NCBI GenBank assembly: GCA_035498355.1
Contig: DATKAG010000541.1
Coordinates: 1-35,040 of the forward strand
From: Myxococcales bacterium
GTDB taxonomy: Bacteria; Myxococcota; Myxococcia; Myxococcales; 40CM-4-68-19
Direction of reading: 5' to 3'
Length of the DNA stretch: 35,040 nucleotides
Part shown: positions 206 to 28,078 of the stretch, one piece after another
How the letters are laid out: every line of letters starts with the position of its first letter
Position numbering within the stretch: the first letter of the stretch is position 1
Position numbers and translations under genes: made by a program
Notes under the pieces: generated by a model
Seen by the model: only the letters and a program-made list of their open reading frames with translations
Told to the model about the DNA's origin: nothing
The model's database searches: none

Positions 206-446
206 GCCGCGCGATTCTAGATCATCCGGGACTCGCGCCTCAGGCCGTCAGATCGCCCGGGCGTTCTCCGCTCGCGAGCCGCACGCAAGAGGAGCATCGC
301 CCCGAGTCAGCCGGCGCAGAAGAGCCGCCCCGCCCAGGGCGCCGGCGATGCGGTCGCCGGGCTTCGTCCAGCGCGTTCTTCTCCTTCCGTGCAGGCTCGC
401 CACCGGACCAATCTGGCGACCCCGGGGCGGCGCGCATGGCGGCGCA

Positions 447-459
447 CGCAAAGTTTGCG
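447..459. promoter_or_regulatory. Palindromic site CGCAA-AGT-TTGCG (copy 1 of a recurrent 13-bp motif), in the lutA/hypF divergent intergenic region
   Basis: Read directly: cgcaaagtttgcg, perfect 5-bp arms (6-bp arms if the spacer is counted as 1 nt). Lies 60 nt upstream of the hypF GTG and about 40 nt upstream of the GG of a sigma-54-like element. Confidence 0.5.
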
Positions 460-490
460 CGGTTCCGGGCGCAGAGAGCGGAAAATCTGC

Positions 491-506
491 TGGCCCCGCG
501 ATTGCT
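491..506 (+). promoter_or_regulatory. Candidate sigma-54 (-24/-12) promoter upstream of hypF
   Basis: TGGCCCCGCGATTGCT versus consensus TGGCACG-N4-TTGCW. GG at 492-493 and GC at 504-505 have the exact spacing. The predicted start site falls about 2 nt before the GTG at 519. Confidence 0.35.
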
Positions 507-2774: not shown

Positions 2775-2885
2775 GACAATCATTCTCGCAATCCTTTCGC
2801 GGCCGCCTGCGCTTCGCCGAAGGCATTGCGCCCGCGCGCAACCAATCGCCTGCATCCACCCTCTGCAATCTGGACCTCATCGCTC

Positions 2886-2901
2886 CGGTTCAGCCCTTGC
2901 A
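2886..2901 (+). promoter_or_regulatory. Candidate sigma-54 (-24/-12) promoter for the hybOABCD operon
   Basis: CGGTTCAGCCCTTGCA with GG-N10-GC spacing exact and a TTGCA -12 box. It sits about 30 nt upstream of the hybO ATG and is followed by SD AAGGAG (2921-2926). The -24 half (GGTTC) is a weaker match. Confidence 0.3.
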
Positions 2902-4048: not shown

Positions 4049-4912
4049 ATGGATCGCCGCAACCTGCTCAAGGTGATCTTCGCCGGAGGGGCGGCGGCGG
4101 CCCTCCCGGCTGCCGCCCGCAACCAGCGGACCGCCGCTCCCGACTCGGTGGGGATGCTCTTCGACTCCACCTACTGCATCGGCTGCAAGGCCTGCGTGGT
4201 GGCCTGCCGCGAGGCCCAGGGGCTGGCGCCGGAGCCGAAGGACGGCATGCACGACGTCCAGACCGAGCTCGACGGGCAGACCAAGAACGTCATCAAGCTC
4301 TGGAAGGACGAGAAGAACCCCGCCGTTTTCGCCTACGTGAAGCAGCAGTGCATGCACTGCATCGACCCGGGCTGCGTCTCCGTCTGCATGCTGGGCGCCT
4401 TGAAGAAGACGGCCGCCGGCCCGGTGACCTACGACAAGGACACCTGCATCGGGTGCCGCTACTGCCAGGTGGCCTGCCCCTTCAACGTCCCCAAGTTCCA
4501 GTGGAGCTCGCCCACCCCGCAGATCGTCAAGTGCGACCTCTGCCAGTCGCGCATCGCCCGGGGCGCCACCCAGCCGGCCTGCACCGAGGTCTGCCCGCGC
4601 AAGGCCGTCATCTACGGCAAGCGCGCGGACCTGCTCGAGGAGGCGCACCGCCGCCTGGCGGCCCACCCGAGCTTCTACGTGGACAAGGTGTACGGCGAGG
4701 ACGACCTGGGCGGCACCAGCGTGCTGTACCTGGCCTCGGTCCCCTTCACCAAGCTCGGCTTCCCCGAGAAGGGCAAGCGGTCCGGGCCCTCGATCACCGA
4801 GTCGGTCCAGCACGGCGTCTACCAGGGCTTCCTCACCCCGGCCATCCTCTACGCCGGCCTGGCCGCCGTGGTGATCCGCAACCGCAAGAAGGACAAGGAG
4901 GCTGACGAATGA
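4049..4912 (+). CDS. hybA: Hydrogenase-2-type 4x[4Fe-4S] ferredoxin subunit (HybA-like), Tat signal, C-terminal TM helix
   Basis: MDRRNLLKV Tat-like N-terminus. Four Cys clusters (CIGCKACVVAC, CMHCIDPGCVSVC, CIGCRYCQVACP, CDLCQSR...CTEVCP). SD GAAGGAGG lies upstream. Position between small subunit and membrane subunit matches E. coli hyb. Confidence 0.85.
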   Translation: MDRRNLLKVIFAGGAAAALPAAARNQRTAAPDSVGMLFDSTYCIGCKACVVACREAQGLAPEPKDGMHDVQTELDGQTKNVIKLWKDEKNPAVFAYVKQQCMHCIDPGCVSVCMLGALKKTAAGPVTYDKDTCIGCRYCQVACPFNVPKFQWSSPTPQIVKCDLCQSRIARGATQPACTEVCPRKAVIYGKRADLLEEAHRRLAAHPSFYVDKVYGEDDLGGTSVLYLASVPFTKLGFPEKGKRSGPSITESVQHGVYQGFLTPAILYAGLAAVVIRNRKKDKEADE

Positions 4913-7727: not shown

Positions 7728-8251
7728 ACCGCATTTGCCTGATGGGCGTCGGGAACGTGCTGATGCACGACGACGCCCTCGGGCCGTACGTGCTCGAGTC
7801 GCTGAAGGCGAAGGTGGAGCTGCCCCTTGAGGTGACGGTGTTCGACGCCGGCACTCCCGGCCTCGACCTCACCCTCTTCCTCGTCGAATTCGACGCCCTG
7901 ATCGCGGTCGACGCCCTCAAGGGGGCGGGCGCGCCGGGCGAGGTGCGCACGTACAGGCGCGACCAGCTCCTCGAAGGCGCCTTGCCCATCACCCTGAGCC
8001 CGCACGAGCCGACGCTGCGCGAGGCGCTGATGCGGATGGGGCTCATGGGCCAGGGGCCGCGGGAGGTCTTCCTGGTGGGCGCCATCCCCGGCGAGGTGAG
8101 CACTGGCGTCGGCCTTTCCCCGGCGGTGCGCGCCGCGGTGCCGGAGATCGAGCAGCACATCCTGCGCGAGCTTTCGCGGTTGGGCGCAAGGGTTGCGCAA
8201 CGGGCTTCCCGCCAACAGCCCGACCACTGGTGGGAGCGCCCCGCGGCCTAG
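7724..8251 (+). CDS. hybD: Hydrogenase maturation endopeptidase (HybD/HyaD family)
   Basis: GTGA overlap with hybC. ICLMGVGNVLMHDDALG, AVDA and LSPHEPTLREAL match the family's acidic/Asp/His metal-ligand blocks. Confidence 0.85.
   Translation: MNRICLMGVGNVLMHDDALGPYVLESLKAKVELPLEVTVFDAGTPGLDLTLFLVEFDALIAVDALKGAGAPGEVRTYRRDQLLEGALPITLSPHEPTLREALMRMGLMGQGPREVFLVGAIPGEVSTGVGLSPAVRAAVPEIEQHILRELSRLGARVAQRASRQQPDHWWERPAA
8184..8198. promoter_or_regulatory. Palindromic site GCGCAA-GGG-TTGCGC (copy 2 of the recurrent motif), about 100 nt upstream of hypC, inside the 3' tail of hybD
   Basis: Read directly: gcgcaagggttgcgc, perfect 6-bp arms with a 3-nt spacer. Confidence 0.45.
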
Positions 8252-8297
8252 GCTCCGGCCGCGATTTTTCGGCGCGAAGACTGCAAGAGCTGCGGCC

Positions 8298-8585
8298 ATG
8301 TGCCTCGGGGTGCCCGGCAAGGTCCTCTCGGTAGCGGGGATGAGCGCGGAAGTCGACTTCTTCGGCGTCCGCCGCCAGGTGCGCCTGGACATCGTCGACG
8401 CCCCCGTCGCGCCCGGCGATTACGTGCTCAACCACGTCGGGTTCGCCATCCACCGCATTCCCGAGGAGGAGATCGGCGAGACCCTGGCGCTCTTCGACAC
8501 CATCCTGCGCGAGGCGCAGCCGCAGGACCTGATGGCGGCGGACGTGCGCGGGGAGATCGAGGCGACGGATGCAGCCCGGAAATGA
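8298..8585 (+). CDS. hypC: Hydrogenase assembly chaperone HypC/HupF
   Basis: Canonical N-terminus MCLGVPGKV, about 95 aa. The frame is open from 8193, but the MCLGVP start is diagnostic. Confidence 0.9.
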   Translation: MCLGVPGKVLSVAGMSAEVDFFGVRRQVRLDIVDAPVAPGDYVLNHVGFAIHRIPEEEIGETLALFDTILREAQPQDLMAADVRGEIEATDAARK

Positions 8586-9711: not shown

Positions 9712-10730
9712 ACCCGCTGCTCGGCGAGCGGGTCGCTCTCAAGCACGGCGCCGGCGGCCGGGCCATGCGCATGCTGATCGAGAGCATCTTCGTCGAAGGG
9801 CTGGCCGCCGAGGTCGACGGCGTGGGGCTGGCGGCGATGGACGACGGCGCCGCCCTGCGCGTCGGCGAGCAGTGGCTGATCCTCACCACCGACTCGCACG
9901 TGGTGCACCCCCGCTTCTTCCCCGGCGGGGACATCGGGCGCCTCTCCATCTCCGGCACCGTCAACGACCTGGCGATGATGGGCGCCACCGAGCCGCTGGG
10001 CCTCACCTGCGCGGTGGTGCTCGAGGAGGGCTTCCCCTTCTCCGAGCTGGAGAGGATCCGCGACTCGATGAAGGCGGCCGCCGCCGAGGCGGGCGCCCGG
10101 GTGGTCACCGGCGACACCAAGGTGATGCGCAAGGGCGAGGTGGACGGGATCGTCCTCAACACCACCGGAGTCGCCCTGACGGGCACGCTGGTGCGCGACT
10201 GCGACCTGCGGCCCGGCGACCGGATCATCGTCAGCGGCTCGATCGGCGACCACGGCTTCGCGGTGCTCGCCGCCCGCCACGGCCTCGACCTGCAGGGGGA
10301 CCTGCGCAGCGACGTCGCGCCGGTCAACGGGGTCGTCCGGCTGGCGCTGCGCGCCGGGGGCGTCGTCGCCCTCAAGGATCCGACGCGGGGCGGGCTGGCG
10401 AGCACGCTGCACGAGCTGGCGGCGAAAAGCGGGGTGGGAATCCTGCTGGAGGAAGGGGCGATCCCCATCCACGGCGAGGTGCGGGCGGCCTCGGAGCTGC
10501 TGGGGATCGACCCGCTGCACGTCGCCAACGAAGGCAAGGCGGTGATCGGGGTGCGGCCGGAGAGCGCGGAGAAGGTGCTGGGCGCAATCCGCGAGCACCC
10601 GCTCGGCCGCGAGTCCGCCATCGTCGGCACCTGCCTCGACGACTGGAAGGGGAAGGTGATCCTCGATACCGGCTTCGGGAAACGGCTCGTGGCCGAGATC
10701 GAGGGCGAGCCCATGCCGCGGATCTGCTGA
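9708..10730 (+). CDS. hypE: Hydrogenase maturation carbamoyl dehydratase HypE
   Basis: AIR-synthase-like fold blocks (GAGGRAM, TTDSHVV, GDTKV) and the diagnostic C-terminal PRIC. ATGA overlap with hypD. Confidence 0.9.
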   Translation: MNPLLGERVALKHGAGGRAMRMLIESIFVEGLAAEVDGVGLAAMDDGAALRVGEQWLILTTDSHVVHPRFFPGGDIGRLSISGTVNDLAMMGATEPLGLTCAVVLEEGFPFSELERIRDSMKAAAAEAGARVVTGDTKVMRKGEVDGIVLNTTGVALTGTLVRDCDLRPGDRIIVSGSIGDHGFAVLAARHGLDLQGDLRSDVAPVNGVVRLALRAGGVVALKDPTRGGLASTLHELAAKSGVGILLEEGAIPIHGEVRAASELLGIDPLHVANEGKAVIGVRPESAEKVLGAIREHPLGRESAIVGTCLDDWKGKVILDTGFGKRLVAEIEGEPMPRIC

Positions 10731-11563
10731 TGAGCTTCATCCGCATCGAGCGCGAGGGAGCGGTGGGCACCCTGGTGATGGAGCGCCGGGAGCGCTTCAA
10801 CGCCATGGACTGCGAGATGGCCCGCGACTTCCGCAAGGCCGGCTTGCAGCTCGCCCGCGACCCGGAGATCCGGGCGGTGGTGCTGCGCGGCTACCCGGGC
10901 GTCTTCTCGAGCGGAGCGGACCTCAAGTACATCCGCGGCGGCGGGGATCCGAAGGGGCTCGGGTACCTCTCCCCGCAGGCGCGCAGCGTGCCTCAGGGAT
11001 ACGGCGAGGTGTTCAAGCAGATCCTCGAATACCTGCACTCGACGATCTCCGAAATCCGCCGCAGCGCGAAGCCGTGGATCGCCGCGGTGGACGGGGTGGC
11101 CGCCGCGGGCGGATTCGGCATCGCGATGTGCTGCGACCTCGTCGTCGCCTCGGCGCGCTCGACCTTCGAGTGGGCGTATGGGAAGACCGCGCTCACCGGG
11201 GCGGAGAGCAGCACGTTCATGATCACCCGGCTGGTCGGCTTCCGCCGGGCGATGGAGCTGGCGCTGCTCAACCCCCGCCTGGACGCGGCGGGAGCGCTGG
11301 CGGCGGGCCTCCTGAACCGGGTCTTCCCCGACGATTCCTTCGACGCCGAGGTGAAGGCGCTGGCGGAGCGCGTGGCGGCGGGGCCCACCCGGTCGTTCGC
11401 GGTCACCAAGATGCTCCTCAACCAGGCGGCGGGCATCGACCGGCTCGACTTCCACCTGGACCAGGAGCTGGAGAACCTGGCCCGCAGCGCCGACAGCGAG
11501 GACTTTCGCGAGGGTCTCGACGCCTTCTTTGCCCGCCGGCCGGCGGCCTTCCGGGGGCGCTGA
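10730..11563 (+). CDS. Enoyl-CoA hydratase/isomerase (crotonase) superfamily protein embedded in the hyp operon
   Basis: Crotonase signatures: RFNAMD, VVLRG..GVFSSGADLK, AAVDGVAAAGGFGIAMCCDL, LLNPRLDAAGALAAGLLNRVF. The start overlaps the hypE stop by 1 nt and the stop overlaps the hypA start by 1 nt. Confidence 0.8.
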   Translation: MSFIRIEREGAVGTLVMERRERFNAMDCEMARDFRKAGLQLARDPEIRAVVLRGYPGVFSSGADLKYIRGGGDPKGLGYLSPQARSVPQGYGEVFKQILEYLHSTISEIRRSAKPWIAAVDGVAAAGGFGIAMCCDLVVASARSTFEWAYGKTALTGAESSTFMITRLVGFRRAMELALLNPRLDAAGALAAGLLNRVFPDDSFDAEVKALAERVAAGPTRSFAVTKMLLNQAAGIDRLDFHLDQELENLARSADSEDFREGLDAFFARRPAAFRGR

Positions 11564-11895
11564 TGCACGAGTACTCGCTGGTGCAGGCGCTGGTTTCCGA
11601 CGTGGAGCGGCAGATGCGCGGCCGCGCCGGCGAGGTGCGCCGGGTGCGGGTGCGGGTGGGAGCGCTCTCGGGAGTCGATCCCGGGCTGTTCTCCACCGCG
11701 TACCAGACCTTCCGTCCCCAGACCGTCTGCGCCTCCGCGGAGCTGGAGCTCACCGGGGTGCCGGCGCGCTGGGCCTGCCCACGGTGCCGGCGGCAGATTG
11801 CCGCGGGAGAGCGCCTGCAGTGCTGCGGCGAGCCGGCCCGGCTGGTGGAGGGCGACGACCTGGTGCTGGAGCAGATCGAGCTGGAGGTGCCGTGA
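11563..11895 (+). CDS. hypA: Hydrogenase nickel-insertion protein HypA (variant zinc site)
   Basis: MHEYSLVQALV N-terminus (MHE nickel site), 110 aa. First zinc motif is CPRC, but the second position reads QCCGEP instead of CxxC. Confidence 0.85.
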   Translation: MHEYSLVQALVSDVERQMRGRAGEVRRVRVRVGALSGVDPGLFSTAYQTFRPQTVCASAELELTGVPARWACPRCRRQIAAGERLQCCGEPARLVEGDDLVLEQIELEVP

Positions 11896-11989
11896 GCAAG
11901 GAGAGCGCAGCCATTGCGCCCATTTCGCGCTCCGCGGAGGACCCGCGGCTGGCCCGTCGATTGCTGATCCCGGAGGGAGGAGATTCCGC

Positions 11990-13554: not shown

Positions 13555-13635
13555 CGCCAGATGCCTCCGCAGCCAGCGATTACAAGAACGATGCCGCGCC
13601 GGATGGCAGGGTGACACAGCCCTTTTCCCGCATGG

Positions 13636-13655
13636 TTTGCGCCTCGGGGCGCAAA
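13636..13655 (-). terminator. GC-rich hairpin TTTGCGCC-N4-GGCGCAAA between hemY and the dksA-like gene (possible attenuator, terminator or operator)
   Basis: Perfect 8-bp inverted repeat with a 4-nt loop, 10 nt downstream of the hemY stop. No U-tract follows on either strand, so intrinsic-terminator function is uncertain. Confidence 0.25.
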
Positions 13656-13664
13656 ATCGAGCCC

Positions 13665-14921
13665 TTACGAGGAGAGGCGGGCCGCGGCGGCTGCGCCCGA
13701 GCGGGCCACGTCGGGCACGCCGACCCCGTCGTAGGCCGCGCCGGCCAGCTCCAGACCGGGGAATCCGGAGAGGAGCGAGCGGAGCTCGCGCACCCTCTCC
13801 CGGTGCCCCGGCGCGTACTGGGGAATGGCCTCGCTCCAGCGCACCACCCGGACGTACTCGGGGTCCTCGCGCACCCCCCAGGTGGCGCGCAGGTCCGCCA
13901 TCACCTTGTCCACCAGCTCCGCGTCGGGAAGGGCGGCCCGCTCGGGGTGCCGGGCGCCGCCGCAGATGGCGGTGACCAGCGCCCGTCCCTGGGGAGCGCG
14001 GCCGGGGAGCATGCTGCTGGGGAGCAGGGTGCCCACGCCGTGCAGCGTGCCGTCGGCGTCGATCATCCCGAACCCGCGCGGGAGCCCGTCCTGGCGCAGG
14101 CCGAGGTGCACCACCGTCACCGGGGCGCAGCGCAAGGCCCCCGCCGCCTCGGCGAAAGCGGGCGCGAAGCTTTTCGCCAGCTCGGCGGCGGCGGCGGCGG
14201 GAACCGCCAGCACCACGCCGTCGAAGCGATATCCCTCGACGATCCAGGTCTTCCCTTCCGGCTCGACCGCCCTCACCCGCGCGCCCAGGCGCACGCGTCC
14301 GTCCAGGGTGCGGGCCGCCGCTTCCGCCAGCATCCCCAGCCCCCCGCGCAGCGTCCAGATCCCGCTCCTCGGCCCCTTCTCCCGGCGAAAGGCGTTGACG
14401 ATCAGCGAGCCCTTCTCGCCCAGCGCTCCCAGCGCGGGGAAGGCGTCCCGCGCGGAGAGCGCGTCCGGGTCCCCGGCGTAGACGCCGGCGCTCATCACCT
14501 TCGCCGCCAGGCCTCCGGCGCGCTTGCCCAGGCGGCGCTCGAGGAATGCGCGCAAGGGAACGTCCTCGCGCAGGGGCTTCGCGAAGAGCGGCTCGAGCAG
14601 CGCCCGGCCCAGGCCGGCGCGGGCGAGCAGCGGCAGGCTGGGCGCCTTGAGCACGCGCCCGTCCAGGTGCACCCAGCGGGTCATGGGCGGCGAGGGCTTC
14701 ACCACCTCGTCGCGCAGCCCGCTCGCCTCCAGCAGCGAGTCGAGCGGCCGGGCGAGGAAGTTGGGGCCGTCCTCGGTCAGGTAGCCCCGCTCGGAGCGCG
14801 TGCCGACCTTGCCGCCGGCGCGGTCGGCGGCTTCGAAGACCACCGGATCGGCCCCGCGCCGGATCAGCTCGTGCGCCGCGGAAAGACCCGCGATTCCGCC
14901 CCCGATCACTGCCACTCGCAT
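13665..14921 (-). CDS. hemY: Protoporphyrinogen/coproporphyrinogen oxidase, FAD-dependent (HemY family)
   Basis: MRVAVIGGGIAGLSAAHEL dinucleotide-binding N-terminus, GKV..R....YL.E.GPN block, 418 aa. SD AGGAGG lies 9 nt upstream of the ATG at 14921. It is the genuine C-terminal part of ORF 13665..16538. Confidence 0.85.
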   Translation of the reverse strand: MRVAVIGGGIAGLSAAHELIRRGADPVVFEAADRAGGKVGTRSERGYLTEDGPNFLARPLDSLLEASGLRDEVVKPSPPMTRWVHLDGRVLKAPSLPLLARAGLGRALLEPLFAKPLREDVPLRAFLERRLGKRAGGLAAKVMSAGVYAGDPDALSARDAFPALGALGEKGSLIVNAFRREKGPRSGIWTLRGGLGMLAEAAARTLDGRVRLGARVRAVEPEGKTWIVEGYRFDGVVLAVPAAAAAELAKSFAPAFAEAAGALRCAPVTVVHLGLRQDGLPRGFGMIDADGTLHGVGTLLPSSMLPGRAPQGRALVTAICGGARHPERAALPDAELVDKVMADLRATWGVREDPEYVRVVRWSEAIPQYAPGHRERVRELRSLLSGFPGLELAGAAYDGVGVPDVARSGAAAAARLSS

Positions 14922-14938
14922 CGCCGACGTCCTCCTGA

Positions 14939-14951
14939 CGCAATTCTTGCG
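14939..14951. promoter_or_regulatory. Palindromic site CGCAA-TTC-TTGCG (copy 3 of the recurrent motif) in the hemY/hemN divergent region
   Basis: Read directly: cgcaattcttgcg. It starts 2 nt beyond the hemY Shine-Dalgarno sequence, and lies 18 nt from the hemY ATG and 109 nt upstream of the hemN ATG. Confidence 0.45.
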
Positions 14952-15059
14952 CGCCGTGTTCCATCGCGCACTTCCTGCGCGCGACGCGCCTCGATGGCGG
15001 GTGTAGAGGCCCGGAAGCAATGGGCATTCCACGGCATGCTTCGTGAACTGTGACCGGGC

Positions 15060-16412
15060 ATGTCCGCCTTTCCCCCCGTGACCGAAGAGCTGGTCCGCCG
15101 CTACGACGTCCCCGCCCCCCGGTATACGAGCTACCCGACCGCGCCGGAATGGTCGGAGCGGATCGGGCCGGCGGACCTGGCCAATGCGCTGCAAACCGCC
15201 GGCGCGCAAGGGCCTTCCGCGCCCCTCTCGCTCTACGTGCACATCCCCTTCTGCAAGGAGCGCTGCACCTTCTGCGGGTGCAACGTGGTCATCGCCCGCA
15301 ACCAGCACACCGCCGACCGCTACATCGCCATGCTGGCCCGCGAGCTGGACAGCGTGGTGCAGCCGCTGGACGAGCGCAGGACGCTCTCCCAGGTGCACTA
15401 CGGGGGCGGGACCCCCACCTTCCTCGACGAGAAGCAGCTCACCGCGCTCTGGCAGAGCATCACCCGGCGCTTCTCCATCGCTCCCGACGCGGAGGTGGCG
15501 GTGGAGGTGGACCCGGTGGTCACCACCCGCGGGCAGCTCGCGCTGTTGCGCTCGTTCGGGTTCAACCGCATCTCCCTGGGCGTGCAGGATCTCGACCCCA
15601 CGGTGCAGAAGGCCATCGACCGCATCCAGACCGAGGAGGAGACGCGGGCGGTGCTGGAGTACGCGCGCGGCCTGGGGTACGGCGGGATCAACGTCGACCT
15701 GATCTACGGACTGCCCTACCAGACGCAACAGAGCTGGGCGGAGACGCTGCGCAAGGTCATCGCCATGCGCCCGGACCGCGCGGCCGTCTACGGCTTCGCT
15801 TACGTCCCTGAGCAGCGCACCAACCAGAAGCGGCTGCCGGTGGCGGGAATCCCCCGGGGGGCGGCGAAGCTCGACCTCTTCCGCACCGCCTGGGAGGCCT
15901 TCACGGAGGCGGGGTACCGGCCCATCGGGATGGACCACTTCGCCCTGCCGGAGGACGAGCTGTCCAAGGCGCAGGAGCGGCGCACGCTGACACGCAACTT
16001 CCAGGGGTATACGGTGAAGGCGGCGGGGGACGTGGTGGCCATCGGAGCTTCCGCCATCAGCGACGTGAGCGGGCTGTACGCGCAGAACGCGCGCGGCCTG
16101 CCGCACTACTACGCGGCCGTGGGCGAGGGCCGGCTGGCCACCGAGCGCGGGTTCCGCTGCAGCGACGACGACCGGCGGCGCCGGGGCATCATCAACAGCA
16201 TCATGTGCAACTTCTGGGTGGACCTGGGGACGACGGCCGGGTGGGAGCGGGAGCTGGAGCGGCTTTCGGCGCTGGAGAAGGAAGGCCTCCTGACGGTGCG
16301 GGGCAGCGAGATCGAGCTGACGCCGCTGGGCCGGATCTTCGTGCGCAACGTGGCCTGCGTGTTCGACGCGTACCTGGGGCATGGCGAAAGGATCTTCTCG
16401 AGGGCGGTGTGA
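15060..16412 (+). CDS. hemN: Oxygen-independent coproporphyrinogen III oxidase (radical SAM) HemN
   Basis: PRYTSYPTA N-terminal motif, radical-SAM CKERCTFCGC, GGGTPTF, 450 aa. Confidence 0.92.
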   Translation: MSAFPPVTEELVRRYDVPAPRYTSYPTAPEWSERIGPADLANALQTAGAQGPSAPLSLYVHIPFCKERCTFCGCNVVIARNQHTADRYIAMLARELDSVVQPLDERRTLSQVHYGGGTPTFLDEKQLTALWQSITRRFSIAPDAEVAVEVDPVVTTRGQLALLRSFGFNRISLGVQDLDPTVQKAIDRIQTEEETRAVLEYARGLGYGGINVDLIYGLPYQTQQSWAETLRKVIAMRPDRAAVYGFAYVPEQRTNQKRLPVAGIPRGAAKLDLFRTAWEAFTEAGYRPIGMDHFALPEDELSKAQERRTLTRNFQGYTVKAAGDVVAIGASAISDVSGLYAQNARGLPHYYAAVGEGRLATERGFRCSDDDRRRRGIINSIMCNFWVDLGTTAGWERELERLSALEKEGLLTVRGSEIELTPLGRIFVRNVACVFDAYLGHGERIFSRAV

Positions 16413-19400
16413 TGAGCGACAAGGCCATCTACCTCTTTGGCGGCGGGGTGGCGGACGGGCGGGCGGAGCTGAAAGAGCTCCTGGGCGGAAAGGGCTCGGG
16501 CCTGGCGGAGATGGCCAGGCTGGGGGTCCCCGTGCCACCCGGCTTCACCATCACCACCGAGGTGTGCGCGGCCTTCCAGCAGGGCGGCGCCATCCCCGGG
16601 GCGGTGATCGCGGAGGTTCCCGGGGCGCTCGCACATCTGGAGAAGATCACCGGGCTGCGCTTCGGCGATCCTGCCGCGCCCTTGCTCGTCTCCGTCCGCT
16701 CGGGGGCGCGGGTGTCCATGCCCGGGATGATGGACACAGTGCTCGACCTCGGGCTCAACGACGTCACCGTCCGGGGCCTGGCCGCGCGCAGCGGCGAGCG
16801 GTTCGCCTGGGACTGCTACCGGCGGTTCGTCTGCATGTACGGCGGCGTGGTGCTGGGGCTGGGCGACGAGCCCTTCGACCGGATCTTCGAGGAAGTGAAG
16901 CGGGAGCGGCACGCGGCCACCGATTCCGATCTCGGCACCCGCGACCTGGCCGCGGTGGTGGAGAAGGCCAAGGCGTTCATCGAGGAGCGCACCGGCAAGC
17001 CCCTGCCTTTCGACCCGCGCGAGCAGCTCCTGCGGGCGGTGGAGGCGGTCTTCCGCTCCTGGGACAACCCGCGGGCGGTGGCCTACCGGGCCCTGCACCA
17101 CATCCCCGGCGGCTGGGGCACCGCGGTCACGGTGCAGGCGATGGTGTTCGGCAACCTGGGCGACGACTCGGGGACCGGGGTGGTGTTCTCCCGGGATCCG
17201 GCCAGCGGAGAGAACGTCCTCTACGGGGAGTATCTCCAGGCCGCCCAGGGCGAGGACGTGGTGGCGGGCATCCGCACCCCGCTGCGCATCGCCGAGATGG
17301 AGCGGAAGTTCCCCGAGGCGTACCGCGGGCTGGTGGAGACGTTGCGCAAGCTGGAGAGGCACTTCCGCGACCTGCAGGACGTGGAGTTCACCGTCGAGCG
17401 TGGCCGGCTCTGGGTGCTGCAGTGCCGCTCGGGCAAGCGCACCGGGACTGCCGCGGTCCGCCTGGCGGTGGAGATGGTGGACGAGGGCCTGATCGACCGG
17501 CGCACCGCGGTCTCCCGCGTCGAGCCCCCGGCCCTGGAGCAGCTGCTGCGTCCGGTCTTCGACTTTGATGCGCGCGCGAAAGCGGAGGTGCTGGCGCGCG
17601 GCTTGCCCGCAGGTCCCGGTGCCGCCTCCGGCCGCGCCGTGTTCAACGCCGCCGAGGCGGAGTGGTCGGCCGGGCGGGGCGAGCGGGTGATCCTTGTCCG
17701 CGAGCAGACCAGCCCGGAGGACATCCGCGGAATGGCGGCGGCGGAGGGGCTGCTCACGCAGTTCGGCGGCATGACCTCGCACGCGGCGCTGGTCGCCCGG
17801 CAGATGGGCAAGGTGGCGGTGGTCGGCGTGGAGACGATGAAGATCGACGCGGAGGGCGCCCTGTTCGGCGCCCGCCGCCTCAAGCCCGGCGACTGGATCT
17901 CGCTGGACGGCAGCGCCGGCGAGGTGATCCTCGGCAAGCTGCCCACCCGCGAGTCGCAGGCGCTGCGGGGCCTGCTGGCGAAGGATTCCACCTCCCCGGT
18001 CGTGCGGCTGCTCTCCTGGGCGGACGAGCTGCGCAGGCTGGGAGTGCGCGCCAACGCCGATCAGGGCGACCAGGCCGCGTTGGCGGCGTCGCTGGGCGCC
18101 GAGGGCATCGGCCTCTGCCGGACGGAGCACATGTTCTTCGGCCCGGGGAAGATCGAGCCGATGCGGGAGATGATCCTGGCCCGCAGCGAGGGGGAGCGGC
18201 GGGTGGCGCTGGAGAAGCTCCTGCCCCTGCAGCGGGCCGACTTCGCGGCGATCTTCCGGGCGATGGGCGGGCACCACGTCACCATCCGCACCCTGGACCC
18301 GCCGCTGCACGAGTTCTTGCCCCACGACCCGGCGGGGATCGCCGAGGTGGCGCAGGCCAGCGGCCGCAGCGCGGAGGAAGTGGCGGCGCGGGTGGAGGAG
18401 CTGGCCGAGTCGAACCCCATGCTGGGGCTGCGGGGTTGCCGCCTGGGGATCTCCTGGCCGGAGATCACCGAGATGCAGGCGCTGGCCATCTTCGAGGCGG
18501 CCTGCGACGTGGCCCAGGAGGGGATCCCGGTCAGGCCCCAGGTGATGATCCCGCTGGCCGGCACCCGCGCGGAGCTGGAGCACCAGGGGAAGGTGGTGCG
18601 GGAGGCGGCGGAGCGCGTCTTCGCCCGCCGGGGGCGGAGGGTGGAGTGGAAGCTCGGGGCGATGATCGAGGTGCCCCGGGCGGCGCTGCTGGCGGGGGAG
18701 ATCGCCGAGGTGTCGGAGTTCGTCTCCTTCGGCACCAACGACCTCACCCAGACGGTCTACGGACTCTCGCGCGACGACGTGGGGCCGGTGCTGGCGCGGT
18801 ATCTCGAGCTGGGCATCTACCCGCAGGACCCGTTCGTCTCCCTGGACCCGGCGGGCGTGGGACAGCTGGTGCGGCTGGCGGTGGAGCGCGGCCGGGCGGT
18901 GCGGCCTTCGCTGGAGGTGGGCATCTGCGGCGAGCACGGCGGCGACCCGGCCTCCATCGCCCTCTGCCACGAGCTGGGCCTGGATTACGTCTCCTGCTCG
19001 CCCTCGCGCCTTCCGGTCGCGCGCCTGGCGGCGGCGCGGGCGGCCATCGCTTCACAACGAGGAGCAATCACAATGAAACGGATCCTGGTGGGAGTGGACG
19101 GTTCGATGGAGTCCCTGCAGGCGGCGCTTCTCGCCGCGAACCTCGCGCACCAGACGCACCGCACCATCGAGCTGGCCCACGTGCTGCCCGACGCGGTCCC
19201 CATGCCTCCGGAAGCCTTCTCCACCGAGCTGGCGGTCTGGAGGAAGGAGATGGCGGAAGAGGGCAACAAGTTGCTGCAGGAGATCCGCAGCCGCGTGGAC
19301 CGCCCGGACACCGAGGTGCGCAGCACCCTGGTGGAGTCGGCCCGTCCCGCGGAAGCCCTGGCCGAGCTGGCCAAGGAGCCGGACATCGACCTGGTGGTGG

Positions 19401-19501
19401 TGGGCCACCGCGGCCGCAGCGTGGTCACCCGGGCGCTCCTGGGCAGCGTGGCGGACCGTTTGGTGCAGATCAGCCCCAAGCCGGTGCTGGTCGTCCGGTA
19501 G
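16412..19501 (+). CDS. ppdK: Pyruvate, phosphate dikinase continuing in frame, with no stop, into a universal stress protein domain (1029-aa ORF)
   Basis: PPDK blocks: GGKGSGLAEM, the swivelling-domain GGMTSHAALVARQMG with phospho-His, PEP-utiliser TIM barrel GLCRTEHMF, FGTNDLTQ, and the C-terminal SCSPSRLPVARLAAARAA that normally ends PPDK. The frame then reads IASQRGAIT-MKRILVGVDGS... to the TAG at 19499-19501. TGATG overlap with hemN. Confidence 0.85.
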   Translation: MSDKAIYLFGGGVADGRAELKELLGGKGSGLAEMARLGVPVPPGFTITTEVCAAFQQGGAIPGAVIAEVPGALAHLEKITGLRFGDPAAPLLVSVRSGARVSMPGMMDTVLDLGLNDVTVRGLAARSGERFAWDCYRRFVCMYGGVVLGLGDEPFDRIFEEVKRERHAATDSDLGTRDLAAVVEKAKAFIEERTGKPLPFDPREQLLRAVEAVFRSWDNPRAVAYRALHHIPGGWGTAVTVQAMVFGNLGDDSGTGVVFSRDPASGENVLYGEYLQAAQGEDVVAGIRTPLRIAEMERKFPEAYRGLVETLRKLERHFRDLQDVEFTVERGRLWVLQCRSGKRTGTAAVRLAVEMVDEGLIDRRTAVSRVEPPALEQLLRPVFDFDARAKAEVLARGLPAGPGAASGRAVFNAAEAEWSAGRGERVILVREQTSPEDIRGMAAAEGLLTQFGGMTSHAALVARQMGKVAVVGVETMKIDAEGALFGARRLKPGDWISLDGSAGEVILGKLPTRESQALRGLLAKDSTSPVVRLLSWADELRRLGVRANADQGDQAALAASLGAEGIGLCRTEHMFFGPGKIEPMREMILARSEGERRVALEKLLPLQRADFAAIFRAMGGHHVTIRTLDPPLHEFLPHDPAGIAEVAQASGRSAEEVAARVEELAESNPMLGLRGCRLGISWPEITEMQALAIFEAACDVAQEGIPVRPQVMIPLAGTRAELEHQGKVVREAAERVFARRGRRVEWKLGAMIEVPRAALLAGEIAEVSEFVSFGTNDLTQTVYGLSRDDVGPVLARYLELGIYPQDPFVSLDPAGVGQLVRLAVERGRAVRPSLEVGICGEHGGDPASIALCHELGLDYVSCSPSRLPVARLAAARAAIASQRGAITMKRILVGVDGSMESLQAALLAANLAHQTHRTIELAHVLPDAVPMPPEAFSTELAVWRKEMAEEGNKLLQEIRSRVDRPDTEVRSTLVESARPAEALAELAKEPDIDLVVVGHRGRSVVTRALLGSVADRLVQISPKPVLVVR
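19073..19501 (+). other. USP (UspA-family) domain with its own SD/ATG, in frame with ppdK; may also be translated independently
   Basis: GAGGAG (19059-19064) lies 8 nt upstream of the ATG at 19073. MKRILVGVDGS...DLVVVGHRGRSVVTRALLGSVADRLVQISPKPVLVVR is a complete USP fold and a paralog of the CDS at 22333..22758. Confidence 0.6.
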
Positions 19502-19627: not shown

Positions 19628-20080
19628 TCAGGCGTGCGGCCCCTCGCGGCTCACTCGCACCACCGCCGCGATTGCAACCAGCGCCACCGGCGTCAGGATG
19701 GCCGTCGTCACCCCGAAAGCCCATGCCCATCCCAGGCTCACGGCGGAAATACCCAGAAGCCCTCCCGCGAGCTCGCGGCGCGAGAGGCGTCCGCCGAGGA
19801 TACCGAAGAAGCACGCGGGCCCCAGTGCCGCGGCCACCAGCGCGCCGAGCGGCGGCGCCTCCGGCACCGGCCCCGGCACGAGGATCCTCCGGAGCGGCAC
19901 CCCCAAATGCGCCATGCCGGCGACATGGGCCGCCGGCGCCTCGCCCTCGCCGACCAGGATCATCCAGCCGTCCGCGGCTCCCAGCAGGTATCCGAAGGTG
20001 CCGGAGGCGGCCGCAAAGGCCGCCAGAAACAGGACCTTCCTGCCCAGGGCAAGTAATCCATTCGCCGCCTGCTTCACCAT
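19628..20080 (-). CDS. Hypothetical small integral membrane protein (about 4 predicted TM helices)
   Basis: Hydrophobic Gly/Ala/Leu-rich product (VLFLAAFAAASGTFGYLLG, LGALVAAALGPACFFGILGG, AVSLGWAWAFGVTTAILTPVALVAIAAVV). Lies downstream of, and co-oriented with, the sigma-54 activator. ATG at 20080 chosen; a GTG at 20119 is an alternative start. Confidence 0.5.
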   Translation of the reverse strand: MVKQAANGLLALGRKVLFLAAFAAASGTFGYLLGAADGWMILVGEGEAPAAHVAGMAHLGVPLRRILVPGPVPEAPPLGALVAAALGPACFFGILGGRLSRRELAGGLLGISAVSLGWAWAFGVTTAILTPVALVAIAAVVRVSREGPHA

Positions 20081-20157
20081 GCCCCCAAAAGAACACGGCG
20101 TGCGCGTCTTGCGACGCACACGCCGGTCATCTCCCGAGATGTCCGCCCCGGGTGCCG

Positions 20158-21564
20158 CTAGGCTGCCGGCGGCGCCTGCTGCGCGACTTCCGCCTGGTGC
20201 TGCCGGTCCAGCTGCGCGTACTCCTTCATCCGGTACTGGATCTTCCGGGCAGAAATCCCCAGCATGTCCGCCGCCCGCGAAGTCGATCCGCCCACCAGCT
20301 CCAGGGTGCGCAGGATGGCTTCCCGCTCGATCTCGTACAGCGTCGCCCCGGGGATCAGCGAACCGGCCTCGCGCCGGTCCGGCCGGGCGCCCCGCAGCGA
20401 AGGCGGCAGGTCGTCCGCGGTGATCTCCCGCCCCTGCGCCAGCACCACGGCCCGCTCGATGGCGTTCTCCAGCTCGCGCACGTTCCCCGGCCAGTCGTGG
20501 GCCAGGAGCGCGTTCAGCGTCCCGGGGCCCAGCCCTCGCACGTCCTTGCCGTAGAGGCGCGCGTACTTCTCGATGAAGTGCGAGGCGAGCGCGGGCAGGT
20601 CTCCCTTGCGCCGGCGCAGCGGGGGCAAAGTGACGGCGACCACGTTCAGCCGGTAGTACAGGTCCTCGCGGAACTTGCCCGCCTTCACCTCGGCGGCCAG
20701 GTCCCGGTTGGTGGCGGCCACCAGGCGGACGTCGACCTTCAGGGTCTGCGTCCCGCCTACCCTCTCGAACTCCTTGGTCTGCAGGACCCGCAGGAGCTTG
20801 ATCTGCGTGGCCGCAGAGATCTCCCCGATCTCGTCCAGGAAGAGCGTCCCGCCGTCGGCCAGCTCGAAGCGGCCTTCCCTGCGCCCGATGGCGCCGGTGA
20901 AGGAGCCCCGCTCATGCCCGAAGAGCTCGCTCTCCAGCAGCGTCTCCGAGAGGGCCGCGCAGGACACCTTGACGAAGGGCTTGTCGCGCCGCGGGCTCTC
21001 CTCGTGCAGCGCGTGGGCGATGATCTCCTTGCCCGTCCCCGACTCGCCGAGGATGAGCACGGTGGCCTTGGTGGGGGCCGCCTGGCGCACGACGTCGTAG
21101 ACCGCGCGCAGCTCGGGGGCATCGCCCACCAGGCCGTCCAGGCGGTACTGCTCGCGCACCCGGTCGCGCAGCGAGAGGGTCTCCCGCTGCAAGCGCCGCT
21201 TCTCCAGCGCCTTCTCCAGGAACACCAGCACCGCCTGCAGGTCGAGCGGCTTGGTGAGGTAGTTCTCGGCGCCGGCCTTCATCGCCTCCACCGCCGCTTG
21301 CACCGAGGCGAAGGCGGTCATCATCACGAAAGCGGCGTCGCTGCCCGCCTCCCGCGCCTTGCGGATGAGGGTGATGCCGTCCATCTTCGGCATCCGCATG
21401 TCGGTGAGCACTACGGCGGGGTCCAGCTCGGCGATCTTCGCCAGCGCCTCCTCGCCGTCTGCGGCCTCGGCGATTTCGTAACCCTCCTCGCCCAGAAGGG
21501 TTCGGAGCGCGGTTCGCGCGTTCTGCTCGTCATCGACGACGAGGATCCGTTCCTTCATTGCCAT
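20158..21564 (-). CDS. NtrC-family sigma-54-dependent response regulator (REC-AAA+-Fis HTH), paralog 1
   Basis: REC (ILVVDDE...VLTDMRMPKMDG...KP), AAA+ Walker [15 protein letters not shown]-type loop [15 protein letters not shown], Walker B LFLDEIGE, and C-terminal [22 protein letters not shown]. Confidence 0.92.
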   Translation of the reverse strand: MAMKERILVVDDEQNARTALRTLLGEEGYEIAEAADGEEALAKIAELDPAVVLTDMRMPKMDGITLIRKAREAGSDAAFVMMTAFASVQAAVEAMKAGAENYLTKPLDLQAVLVFLEKALEKRRLQRETLSLRDRVREQYRLDGLVGDAPELRAVYDVVRQAAPTKATVLILGESGTGKEIIAHALHEESPRRDKPFVKVSCAALSETLLESELFGHERGSFTGAIGRREGRFELADGGTLFLDEIGEISAATQIKLLRVLQTKEFERVGGTQTLKVDVRLVAATNRDLAAEVKAGKFREDLYYRLNVVAVTLPPLRRRKGDLPALASHFIEKYARLYGKDVRGLGPGTLNALLAHDWPGNVRELENAIERAVVLAQGREITADDLPPSLRGARPDRREAGSLIPGATLYEIEREAILRTLELVGGSTSRAADMLGISARKIQYRMKEYAQLDRQHQAEVAQQAPPAA

Positions 21565-21577
21565 GGCCCCATCCTTC

Positions 21578-21592
21578 GCAAGTGTCGTGCCG
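21578..21592 (-). promoter_or_regulatory. Near-consensus sigma-54 promoter element abutting the activator paralog-1 start
   Basis: The minus strand reads CGGCACGACACTTGC(G), against consensus TGGCACG-N4-TTGCW. The C of GC is at 21578, so the predicted start site is about 21566, 2 nt before the ATG at 21564. The element overlaps the AAGGA SD. Confidence 0.45.
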
Positions 21593-21975: not shown

Positions 21976-21995
21976 GGGCTTTTCTCCTTGAGGAG

Positions 21996-22138: not shown

Positions 22139-22154
22139 AGCAAGACGCATGCCC
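22139..22154 (-). promoter_or_regulatory. Candidate sigma-54 promoter for the sORF-cytochrome c-activator-membrane protein operon
   Basis: The minus strand reads GGGCATGCGTCTTGCT, with GG-N10-GC exact, GGCATG against GGCACG, and a TTGCT -12 box. The predicted start site near 22128 gives a 22-nt leader carrying the sORF SD. Confidence 0.5.
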
Positions 22155-22225
22155 CTCTGCCGTCGAGCGTCAAGACGAGGTTTGCACGCACGAAATGCAC
22201 AGCGGAATGCCGCAAATCCCCCCTC

Positions 22226-22758: not shown

Positions 22759-22924
22759 GGTACACCTCCGGTGCAGAAGTGTTCATAAAGCATGCCGCCT
22801 CCATCCTCGCGACTTGTCGAAGCAGCAATCGCAGGAACTGCAACCACGGGGGGCGCATCGCGCACCCGCGCCTTTTCGGCCACCCGAATCTCGCCCGACG
22901 CATTTGCAGCGGCCTTCCCGTCGA

Positions 22925-22945
22925 GGGGCGCAACTCTTGCGCCCC
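22925..22945. promoter_or_regulatory. Perfect 9-bp inverted repeat GGGGCGCAA-CTC-TTGCGCCCC (copy 4, the longest, of the recurrent motif) in the USP/hemerythrin divergent region
   Basis: Read directly. Because of the flanking G/C runs it also satisfies GG-N10-GC on both strands: GGCGCAACTCTTGC on plus and GGCGCAAGAGTTGC on minus. Confidence 0.55.
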
Positions 22946-22974: not shown

Positions 22975-22990
22975 CGGCTCGCCCCTTGCA
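22975..22990 (+). promoter_or_regulatory. Candidate sigma-54 promoter for the hemerythrin-like gene plus activator paralog 2
   Basis: CGGCTCGCCCCTTGCA with exact GG-N10-GC spacing and a TTGCA -12 box. The predicted start site near 23001 lies just ahead of SD AGAGGAGG (23002-23009) and the ATG at 23015. Confidence 0.45.
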
Positions 22991-23518: not shown

Positions 23519-24910
23519 ATGCCCAAGGAACGCATCCTCGTCGTCGACGACGAGCAGAACGCCCGCTCTGCGCTCCGCCTCATCCTCAGCGAGGAAGGCT
23601 ACGAGATCGCCGAGGCCGAGGACGGAGAGGCCGCGCTGGCCCGGCTGGAGGAGTTCGCCCCCGCCGTGGTGCTGGCGGACGTGCGCATGCCCAGGATGGA
23701 CGGGCTGACCCTGCTGCGCACCGCCAAGGAGCGGGGGAGCGACGCCATCTTCATCATGATGACCGCCTTCGGCACGGTGGAGGCGGCGGTGGAGGCGATG
23801 CGCGCCGGCGCGGAGAACTTCCTCACCAAGCCGCTGGACGTGAACTCGGTGCTGGTCTTCCTGCAGAAGGCGTTGGAGAAGCGCAAGCTGGTGCGCGAGT
23901 CGCAGGCGCTGCGGGAGCGGGTGCGGGAGCGCTACCGGATCAGCGGCATGGTGGGCGAGGCCCCCGAGCTGCAGGCCGTCTACCAGGTGGTGAAGCAGGC
24001 CGCGCCCACCCGGGCCACCGTGCTCATCCTGGGCGAGTCCGGCACCGGCAAGGAGCTGATCGCCCAGGCGGTGCACGAGGAGAGCGACCGGGCGCAGAAG
24101 CCGTTCGTCAAGGTGAGCTGCGCGGCCCTCTCCGAGACCCTGCTGGAGAGCGAGCTGTTCGGGCACGAGAAGGGCTCCTTCACCGGGGCGATTGCGCGCA
24201 AGGAGGGCCGCTTCGAGCTGGCCGACGGCGGGACGCTCTTCCTCGACGAGATCGGCGAGATCACCCCTTCCACCCAGGTGAAGCTCTTGCGGGCCCTGCA
24301 GACCCGGGAGTTCGAGCGGGTGGGCGGGACGCAGACCATCAAGGTGGACGTCCGCCTGGTGGCCGCCACCAACCGCGACCTGGTGGCGGAGGTGAAGGCA
24401 GGGAAGTTCCGCGAGGACCTCTTCTACCGGCTGAACGTGGTGGCGGTGACGCTGCCGCCCCTGCGGCGGCGCAAGGGCGACATCCCCGCCCTGGTGAGCC
24501 ACTTCGTGGAGAAGTACGCGGCCAACTACGGCAAGGAGGTGAAGGGCCTCGCTCCCGGCACCCTCAACGCCCTGCTCGCCTACGACTGGCCGGGCAACGT
24601 CCGCGAGTTGGAGAACGCGGTGGAGCGCGCGGTGGTGCTCTGCAAGGGCCGGGAGCTGACTGCGGACGATCTCCCGCCCACCATGCAGGGGCCTCGCCCC
24701 GCCGGCCGCGACGCCAACAGCCTCATCCCCGGGGCCACCATGGCGGAGATCGAGCGGGAGGCCATCCTCCGCACCATGGAGATGGTGGGCGGCTCCACCG
24801 CCAAGGCGGCGGACATGCTGGGCATCTCCATCCGCAAGATCCAGTACCGGCTGAAGGAGTATTCGGGCGAGGTGCCCCCGCACACGGGCGATCACGAGCC
24901 CGAGGCATAG
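23519..24910 (+). CDS. NtrC-family sigma-54-dependent response regulator, paralog 2
   Basis: Collinear with the 20158..21564 product, roughly three-quarters identical by eye. Shares GESGTGKE and [15 protein letters not shown], and the HTH is almost identical ([19 protein letters not shown]). Confidence 0.92.
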
Positions 24911-27924: not shown

Positions 27925-27993
27925 CGCTTTTTGCGGAGTTTTTGCGCAGAACTTGCGCGCCGGGACCCCCGGCGCGCCGGCCGCGGCGCAAGT

Positions 27994-28022: not shown

Positions 28023-28078
28023 GTGAAAGGCCCCCCGGGGGGTGGCCCGGCGCTTGCTGCCAAAAAGGGCAAGCCGCG

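Follow-up and report, generated by a model that had tools for sequence, protein, structure and literature searches.

The closest described relatives of the system considered here are the NmpRSTU phosphorelay of Myxococcus xanthus (McAllister 2025 J Bacteriol PMC11841059; Bretl 2018 PLoS Genet PMC6211767) and the two-component system of the globin-coupled histidine kinase AfGcHK of Anaeromyxobacter sp. Fw109-5 (PDB codes 5OHE, 5OHF and 6OTD). We compare them here with a 35,040-nucleotide stretch of DNA from an uncultured Myxococcales lineage (assembly GCA_035498355.1, contig DATKAG010000541.1; the whole stretch is hereafter called the window), in which the palindrome CGCAA-N3-TTGCG recurs near the starts of hydrogenase, haem-synthesis and sensory genes. 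In M. xanthus, binding of the NtrC-like protein NmpR to GCGCA-N5-TGCGC was demonstrated by electrophoretic mobility shift assays with site mutants, and activation of sigma-54 promoters by lacZ reporters; two sites were required in vitro, with a usual gap of 14-15 nt between them (PMC11841059). The regulon there comprises hemN together with a hemerythrin gene, a universal stress protein (USP) gene, the CBS-domain gene that heads the nmpR operon, nmpU-nmpT-nmpS, pilR and a cluster for a cbb3 oxidase (PMC11841059). For Anaeromyxobacter the same study states that the Nmp regulon is unknown, and predicts a shared core accompanied by species-specific targets; in strain Fw109-5 nmpR is convergent with nmpS-T-U, and a CBS gene is divergent from nmpU (PMC11841059). 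The AfGcHK work has been concerned with sensing and phosphotransfer only.

Two further NtrC-family systems bear comparison. Classical NtrC (GlnG) enhancers, TGCACC-N5-GGTGCA, are found upstream of glnAp2, while HupR/HoxA of Rhodobacter, Ralstonia and Bradyrhizobium acts at a palindrome upstream of [NiFe]-hydrogenase genes. The latter proteins respond to H2 via HupUV/HupT and use a TTG-N5-CAA-type site, and the hupS promoter of R. capsulatus is sigma-70 dependent.

The palindromes of the window are very probably enhancer (upstream activating) sites for the NtrC-like NmpR of an NmpRSTU oxygen-sensing phosphorelay. As in M. xanthus, GCGCA-N5-TGCGC is found upstream of sigma-54-type promoters, and nearby genes encode a protoglobin kinase, a hybrid kinase, an NtrC-like regulator and a presumed double-receiver protein. 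M. xanthus targets that have sites in the window as well are hemN, hemerythrin, USP, CBS-domain gene, nmpU(TS) and the operon of the regulator itself, and a site inside hybD recalls pilS/pilR of M. xanthus, where one site lies in the upstream coding region. The window differs from M. xanthus in its host lineage, which has a [NiFe]-hydrogenase cluster, in the duplication of NmpR, in predicted additional targets (hypF, hypC-D-E, a maturation protease with hypB, a cytochrome c gene preceded by a short open reading frame (sORF), and perhaps hybO) and in having no cbb3 oxidase or pilR target within its 35 kb. Several of its promoters have one strong site instead of an S1/S2 pair with a 14-15 nt gap, and the inner positions of its sites are constrained. 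It would share with NtrC a dyad of about 15-17 bp bound by an HTH_8 dimer, multiple sites some 80-140 bp upstream of a sigma-54 promoter, and activation by oligomerisation and looping; the half-site sequence and targets are different, and the input would be oxygen through a haem kinase relay, not nitrogen status. From HupR/HoxA it differs in its putative input, oxygen, and in its sigma-54-type promoters. From the M. xanthus and Anaeromyxobacter work we infer that NmpR binds here, that it activates, and that it responds to oxygen.

The palindrome, its consensus and its setting

A preliminary description of this DNA, made by reading it, listed four perfect copies of CGCAA-N3-TTGCG (447-459, 8185-8197, 14939-14951 and 22929-22941), estimated that fewer than 0.1 would occur by chance, and proposed a shared operator. 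A pattern search of the window returned exactly these four, against 0.02 expected from dinucleotide-preserving shuffles; none of 100 shuffles held four or more. Distances to start codons of 60, 101, 109 and 74 nt (hypF, hypC, hemN and hemerythrin gene) were reproduced by a gene map based on third-position G+C and start-codon context and supported by Pfam calls on the source contig (ENA ERZ27256499 k141_5446256). Three copies are in divergent intergenic DNA (lutA-like/hypF, hemY/hemN and USP/hemerythrin) and the fourth, 8185-8197, is within the final 70 nt of hybD, 101 nt 5' of hypC. Copy 22929-22941 is indeed the core of a 21-bp inverted repeat (9+3+9, GGGGCGCAA-CTC-TTGCGCCCC) at 22925-22945.

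All four copies are preceded by G or A and followed by C, giving (G/A)CGCA-N5-TGCGC. This is the consensus published for NmpR, and the earlier suggestion that NtrC-type activators bind the palindrome thus has computational support. To count as NmpR-type, a site had to deviate from this consensus at two positions at most and to keep the GCA-N5-TGC core. Perfect GCGCA-N5-TGCGC sites number six in the window (at 8184, 11905, 14966, 22227, 22928 and 27944) against 0.28 expected, and sites 446 and 14938 retain the GCA-N5-TGC core with one consensus mismatch. Five of the six lie in non-coding DNA, which makes up 7% of the window (P about 1e-5). As background, unrelated high-G+C loci contain 11 perfect sites per 734 kb, and the 9.5 kb to the left of the window contain none (positions 1-9482 of L177; comparison loci are labelled L001-L177, L003 being M. 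xanthus, L174 a Myxococcaceae metagenome-assembled genome (MAG) and L175 from Anaeromyxobacteraceae). The spacer is constrained at position 6 (A or G) and position 10 (T), the usual form here being GCGCAR-N3-TTGCGC. Since the true consensus is the broader GCGCA-N5-TGCGC, two near matches of the preliminary description, 22228 and 27945, are really full sites. Its other near matches exist too, but the class of copies with at most two mismatches shows no enrichment (26 against 20.9 expected), and sites 11905 and 14966 had been overlooked.

A weighted scan for TGGCAC-N5-TTGC gave its best matches just upstream of genes. The sites lie 64-164 bp upstream of a GG-N10-GC-type element aimed at a gene 2-52 nt downstream, in agreement with published placement rules, and are better read as enhancers upstream of sigma-54-like promoters than as operators. 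Relative to predicted start sites, their centres are at -64 (hypF), -105 (hypC), -64 (second maturation protease), -113 and -85 (hemN), -106 and -65 (sORF-cytochrome c), -66 (hemerythrin-nmpR2), -164 (USP) and -118 and -76 (CBS). Helical phasing of these positions (-64, -85, -106 and so on) was considered and set aside, the positions being suggestive but too few and too scattered. Pairing was judged as at least two sites per promoter, 5-50 bp apart, with a preferred gap of 14-15 nt (29-30 bp centre to centre). Spacings between centres are 28 bp at hemN, 25 and 41 bp at cytochrome c, 31 bp at hypC (with a weak partner) and at hybO (both weak), and 11 and 42 bp at CBS/nmpU. Additional GCGCA/TGCGC-like half-sites are found one helical turn (10-11 bp) from main dyads at 425-460, 11894-11930 and 27933-27958, creating overlapping sites with a common TGCGCA half; these might extend NmpR oligomer binding where a separate second site is absent.

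Phylogenetic footprinting, suggested as a check by the preliminary description, reveals the sites and promoters as conserved islands in orthologous upstream regions of related Myxococcota. The evidence gathered computationally consistently supports its central proposal, that a shared site ties hyp, haem and sigma-54 sensory genes into one regulon.

The relay itself is encoded towards the right of the window, with domains as assigned by Pfam:

20158..21564, minus strand: nmpR1, NtrC-like activator (REC, sigma-54 AAA+, HTH_8)
23519..24910, plus strand: nmpR2, NtrC-like activator (REC, sigma-54 AAA+, HTH_8), convergent with nmpS
24918-26003, minus strand: nmpS-like gene (REC-HisKA-HATPase)
26000-26704, minus strand: nmpT-like gene (two receiver domains expected; Pfam finds one, residues 5-113 of 234)
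26701-27846, minus strand: nmpU-like gene (protoglobin-HisKA-HATPase)

The gene order is that published for Anaeromyxobacter, including the CBS gene divergent from nmpU, and the globin domain of the NmpU-like kinase matches that of AfGcHK (PDB code 5OHE) with E = 2.7e-60. NmpT homologues in L174 and L175 give a faint match to PF06490 (FleQ), L174 also having a weak second receiver match. NmpR-like proteins adjoining nmpSTU in the Myxococcaceae MAG, the Anaeromyxobacteraceae MAG and closer relatives are 73-79% identical to NmpR2, and their HTH region is nearly invariant. Synteny, domain architecture and the shared hemN target suggest that the NmpR proteins of the window are orthologous to that of M. 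xanthus (MXAN_4240). The two NmpR copies of the window are 77% identical, and both are present in L176 (12939-14330 and 17565-18971), one behind the hemerythrin gene and the other behind the sORF-cytochrome c unit; in L174 and L175 a single nmpR copy was seen near nmpSTU.

Sites in the hydrogenase cluster and before hemN

The features of the hydrogenase cluster are as follows, dyad sites being given here and below without strand:

446..460: NmpR-type site ACGCAAAGTTTGCGC, 5' of hypF; one mismatch to GCGCA-N5-TGCGC, centre about -64
491..506, plus strand: sigma-54-type promoter TGGCCCCGCGATTGCT of hypF; -12 C 14 nt upstream of the GTG start codon (519)
2786..2831: weak pair of sites, TCGCAATCCTTTCGC and CCGAAGGCATTGCGC, 5' of hybO; 31 bp centre to centre
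2886..2901, plus strand: sigma-54-like promoter CGGTTCAGCCCTTGCA of hybO; CCGGTTCA and TGC invariant in five genomes
8153-8167: weak partner CAGCACATCCTGCGC of the hypC site; 31 bp centre to centre
8184..8198: perfect NmpR-type site GCGCAAGGGTTGCGC, inside the hybD 3' end, 100 nt before hypC
8270..8285, plus strand: sigma-54-like promoter CGGCGCGAAGACTGCA of hypC(DE...); -12 C 14 nt upstream of the ATG start codon (8298)
11905..11919: perfect NmpR-type site GCGCAGCCATTGCGC, between hypA and the second hydrogenase maturation protease gene; centre about -64
11950..11965, plus strand: sigma-54-type promoter TGGCCCGTCGATTGCT of the protease-hypB genes; L170 retains TTGGCCCCCTAATTGCT
13628..13642: candidate site CCGCATGGTTTGCGC, one mismatch, upstream of a minus-strand DksA/TraR-type zinc-finger gene

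Upstream of hypF, alignment of five related genomes (69-84% HypF identity) conserves only the NmpR-type site, the TGGCCC-N5-TTGC promoter and the start codon. The promoter has TGGC..GC..TTGC invariant with its spacing to the start codon kept, and the site occupies the same position throughout. In a metagenome scan for HypF, used as background only, none of the relatives at 43-63% identity had a site upstream of hypF; these are probably Acidobacteriota, since the closest named HypF in that identity range comes from Vicinamibacteria.

The site within hybD is kept in L170 and L171, and the hypC promoter is identical in L171. In three genomes the site is spelled with the codons GCA and GTT, each of which accounts for 1.8% of its codon family in the window; the use of such rare codons suggests that it is the DNA sequence, rather than the protein, that is under selection. 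The perfect site before the second protease gene has a counterpart in L170, GCGCAAGATTTTCGC, at the equivalent place. The status of the two hybO sites (2786 and 2817) is uncertain: with two mismatches each and a broken GCA-N5-TGC core they fail the consensus test, and L169 and L171 retain them in part. The assignment of the 13628 candidate is weak, as no sigma-54 promoter was identified there; the dksA-like gene adjoining nmpR in L175 is also near a one-mismatch site (15673-15687).

Within the cluster, an enoyl-CoA hydratase/crotonase-family gene (10730-11563) is inserted between hypE and hypA, an arrangement kept in L170 and L171. Its end is overlapped by hypA (11560-11895; 111 aa, Pfam E = 1e-22), which the composition-based gene map initially missed.

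Between the divergent hemY and hemN genes two features were located:

14938..14980: NmpR-type site pair, ACGCAATTCTTGCGC (14938-14952) and GCGCACTTCCTGCGC (14966-14980)
15032..15047, plus strand: variant sigma-54-like promoter CGGCATGCTTCGTGAA of hemN; canonical -24, -12 of GTGA, -12 position 14 nt before the ATG

The pair has its centres 28 bp apart (a 13-nt gap), at -113 and -85 from the predicted hemN start site. Its conservation was assessed by a HemN scan of species-representative genomes, from which the best 80 loci (1.36 Mb) were taken, none of them from the source genome or from a named Anaeromyxobacter. CGCAA-N3-TTGCG occurs four times in these 80 loci, every time 59-113 nt upstream of hemN in Myxococcota. 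Pairs at equivalent positions are found 5' of hemN in L003 (M. xanthus), L001, L004, L005, L007-L011 and L018. In Myxococcus hemN loci two degenerate copies exactly 30 bp apart are followed by TGGCACG-N4-TTGGAAT, and such M. xanthus-type pairs are present in L003, L004 and L009-L011. The M. xanthus locus itself has GCGCAGGGGTTGCGC and CCGCAAGGCCTGCGT 30 bp apart, followed by TGGCACGAGGCTTGG; because a hemerythrin gene follows hemN there, L003 can be equated with the mxan_5532/5531 locus. The hemN promoter of M. xanthus is bound by NmpR in vitro (PMC11841059). Homologues of nmpR, nmpU and nmpS lie within a few kb of hemN in L002, L013 and L016, and an nmpR homologue does so in L018.

The hemN and USP promoters of the window share CGGCAYGCTTnnTGAAC, with a canonical -24 (GGCAYG), a form conserved in L176 (about 15010-15030), L001, L002 and L018. 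At hemN, CGGCAYG-N4-GTGAA is kept in the last three of these, the Myxococcaceae equivalent being TGGCACG-N4-TTGGAAT, with TTGGAAT at -12. This promoter type may be a subclass of sigma-54 promoters or a composite site.

The left hemN site ends 16 nt from the start codon of hemY (14921-14952; the distance is about 11 nt in L001), which encodes a protoporphyrinogen oxidase of the FAD amine-oxidase type. Given this proximity, it may be speculated that NmpR bound there might also hinder hemY expression by occluding its promoter or leader. A minus-strand sigma-54-like match at 15016-15031 was rejected as a hemY promoter, its GG not being conserved in L001.

In four promoters of the window, those of hypF (491-519), hypC (8270-8298), hemN (15032-15060) and nmpR1 (21564-21592), the -12 element lies exactly 14 nt before the start codon. 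This spacing is conserved in five genomes for hypF and in L001, L002 and L018 for hemN. With the predicted start only about 2 nt before the start codon, and no Shine-Dalgarno sequence, the sigma-54 transcripts of these genes appear to be leaderless or nearly so.

In the hemN region we also observed pyruvate phosphate dikinase (PPDK) fused in frame to a C-terminal USP domain (16412-19501, 1029 aa; PPDK_N, PEP-utilizers, PEP-utilizers_C and Usp). A gap of 50 nt (4287 to 4338) separates the PPDK match from the USP match in L001, and in L176 Usp is called as a separate gene (19857-20285) overlapping the PPDK gene start, so the fusion is confirmed only in the strain of the window.

Sites around the nmp genes

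The remaining sites and promoters cluster about the nmp genes and their neighbours:

21577..21592, minus strand: sigma-54-like promoter CGGCACGACACTTGCG, immediately before nmpR1
22139..22154, minus strand: sigma-54-type promoter GGGCATGCGTCTTGCT of the sORF-cytochrome c(-nmpR1) unit; one base differs in L176
22186..22266: sORF/cytochrome c sites, GCGCAGGGATTGCGC (22227-22241, perfect), GCGCAGGGCTTTCGC (22252-22266, one mismatch) and ACGCACGAAATGCAC (22186-22200, two mismatches)
22782..22797, minus strand: variant sigma-54-like promoter CGGCATGCTTTATGAA of the USP gene, of the hemN-promoter type; its L176 counterpart is CGGCACGCTTCGTGAAC
22928..22942: perfect NmpR-type site GCGCAACTCTTGCGC, flanked by the divergent USP and hemerythrin-nmpR2 promoters
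22975..22990, plus strand: sigma-54-type promoter CGGCTCGCCCCTTGCA of hemerythrin-nmpR2; conserved in L176
27909..27924, minus strand: sigma-54-like promoter AGGCTTGACGCTTGCA of nmpUTS; GGCTTG-N4-CTTGCA conserved in L176
27933..28000: nmpU/CBS divergent-region sites, GCGCAGAACTTGCGC (27944-27958, perfect), GCGGAGTTTTTGCGC (27933-27947, one mismatch, sharing one half-site with 27944-27958) and GCGCAAGTGGTTCGC (27986-28000, one mismatch)
28043..28058, plus strand: sigma-54-type promoter TGGCCCGGCGCTTGCT of the CBS-domain gene; identical in L176

The most informative comparison for this region is with L176 (83% NmpU identity), where sites and sigma-54 promoters are kept at CBS/nmpU, hemerythrin/USP and cytochrome c while their surroundings diverge. 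The perfect site at 22227-22241 aligns with an L176 perfect site, GCGCAAATCGTGCGC (16882-16896), the half-sites being kept and the spacer different; the block over 22186-22200 is identical in the two, and 22252-22266 is not kept. Site 22928..22942, centred at -66 from the hemerythrin predicted start and -164 from that of USP, is retained as GCGCAATTCGTGCGC without the extended arms of the palindrome. The nmpU/CBS region of L176 has two perfect sites. No clear NmpR site was found upstream of the promoter immediately before nmpR1.

Two further observations concern neighbouring genes. The cytochrome c gene is separated from the sigma-54 promoter by a 36-codon open reading frame (MRPSTARPNPRS..., with a hydrophobic tail; 21992-22102, minus strand), almost every codon of which is preserved in L176 and for which a gene was called in L084. 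In L174, a canonical site pair, GTGCAAGCGCTGCGC and GCGCACCCACTGCGC (8098-8141; 29 bp centre to centre), is located in a short hypothetical open reading frame upstream of a TonB-dependent receptor gene, which may be a lineage-specific NmpR target.

Competing explanations and the proposed regulon

A number of observations sit uneasily with the assignment of the sites to NmpR. Only one clear site is present at each of the hypF, hemerythrin and protease promoters, whereas NmpR in M. xanthus needed two in vitro, and where pairs occur their gaps are 10, 13, 16 or 27 nt against the usual 14-15 nt. Centres at -64 are close to the promoter for an activator that acts by looping. The hemN and USP promoters have a non-canonical -12, TGAA instead of TGC, and the hybO sites break the GCA-N5-TGC core that was perfect in all bound M. 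xanthus sites. In L170 the site within hybD is kept, yet the hypC promoter is missing. Finally, rpoN is not in the window.

Against these stand the difficulties of other explanations. Binding by some other regulator encoded elsewhere, either a repressor at a true operator or a CRP/FNR-, Rrf2- or NnrR-type protein, would make the match to NmpR coincidental and is unlikely, even though many dimeric regulators typically use single 15-bp dyads near promoters, the position of the left hemN site against the hemY ribosome-binding region is operator-like, and L175 has a Crp-family gene near its nmp locus. The NnrR box, TTGCG-N4-CGCAA, has the same half-sites in the opposite arrangement; neither it nor the FNR/CRP arrangement (5-N4-5, TTGAT type) fits the CAA-N3-TTG inner dyad. 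The sequence is, moreover, identical to the NmpR consensus established by experiment, the sites accompany nmp genes in L002, L013, L016, L018 and L174-L176, they precede sigma-54-type promoters, which need an enhancer-binding activator, and the target set matches the M. xanthus NmpR regulon. It is very unlikely that the palindrome serves as a sigma-54 promoter in its own right, or as a decoy for one, despite the resemblance of GGCGCAA-N3-TTGC to TGGCAC-N5-TTGC. A scan for the latter with up to two mismatches does match copies 8185, 14939 and 22929 and site 27944; copies 8185 and 22929 have GG and GC at the correct 10-nt spacing, and the 22925-22945 repeat would read as a promoter on both strands. 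This explanation was rejected on the grounds that two of the four copies, 447 and 14939, lack the essential GG on either strand and that better-scoring, separately conserved sigma-54 promoters lie 40-90 bp downstream, at sensible distances from start codons. In addition, the L176 counterpart of 22929 is without GG on one side and keeps its GCGCA/TGCGC halves, so that what is conserved is a dyad, not a directional -24/-12 element.

Formation of RNA or DNA hairpins (terminators, attenuators or elements resembling repetitive extragenic palindromes) in place of protein binding is extremely improbable. Copy 22929 could form a 9-bp G+C-rich stem with a 3-nt loop, copy 8185 is transcribed in the hybD mRNA, and copy 14939 may lie in the hemY leader. 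Nevertheless, none of the four copies is followed by a T-run, most are upstream of predicted start sites, and L176 lacks the extended arms of copy 22929; in the more than 20 instances compared, the half-site sequence is constant and the spacer varies, with no covariation, and the window has no Rfam match. Since the copies have no shared flanks, they are not a family of repeat elements, and this explanation too was discarded. The prospect of chance, or of a word driven by composition or codon usage in a genome of 70% G+C, is negligible. G+C-rich words like GCGC are common in the genome and the copies with up to two mismatches show no enrichment, but the excess of perfect copies and of consensus sites, the strong intergenic bias, the positional conservation in other genomes and the rare codons of the one coding copy led to its rejection.

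We thus retain NmpR as the protein most probably acting at these sites, and its mode of action may be outlined by analogy with M. xanthus and AfGcHK. Oxygen-bound NmpU would keep NmpS off; as oxygen falls, NmpS would autophosphorylate and pass the phosphoryl group to NmpR. Dimers of NmpR would then bind the GCGCA-N5-TGCGC dyads, here usually GCGCAR-N3-TTGCGC, oligomerise, and use ATP to open sigma-54 promoters 40-100 bp downstream. The predicted targets are hypF; hypC-hypD-hypE and the genes downstream; the second maturation protease with hypB; hemN, possibly with PPDK-USP; the sORF-cytochrome c-nmpR1 unit; USP; hemerythrin-nmpR2; nmpUTS; the CBS gene; and possibly hybOABCD.

As the motif had already been published in 2025, together with the protein that binds it and the core regulon (PMC11841059), the sites do not represent a new kind of element. 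What would be new are NmpR sites before the maturation genes of a [NiFe]-hydrogenase, kept in several related MAGs, the prediction of a regulon for an Nmp system of the Anaeromyxobacter type, a tighter site model in GCGCAR-N3-TTGCGC, and the apparent occurrence of single strong sites. A search of the literature accessible to us found no paper linking NmpR to hydrogenase genes or to Anaeromyxobacter targets.

A broader hypothesis, to which we give slightly less than an even chance, is that in hydrogenase-bearing, probably facultatively anaerobic Myxococcota NmpRSTU directly switches on the synthesis and maturation of an uptake [NiFe]-hydrogenase (hypF, hypCDE, hypA/B, the maturation proteases and perhaps hybOABCD) together with hemN, for oxygen-independent haem synthesis, by way of leaderless or near-leaderless sigma-54 mRNAs. 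Lying against the hemY ribosome-binding site, the hemN enhancer pair would simultaneously block the gene for the oxygen-dependent HemY. If true, this would be the first regulon for an Anaeromyxobacter-type Nmp system, and would make that system a sigma-54-based functional analogue of FNR or FixLJ.

The window and its relatives offer a testable candidate regulon for a lineage related to that of AfGcHK, whose Nmp targets are listed as unknown (PMC11841059). Its candidate core consists of hemN, hemerythrin, USP, the CBS protein and nmp autoregulation, and the predicted addition is that of the hydrogenase maturation genes and perhaps the structural genes. Such an addition would connect oxygen sensing by a protoglobin kinase to H2 metabolism.

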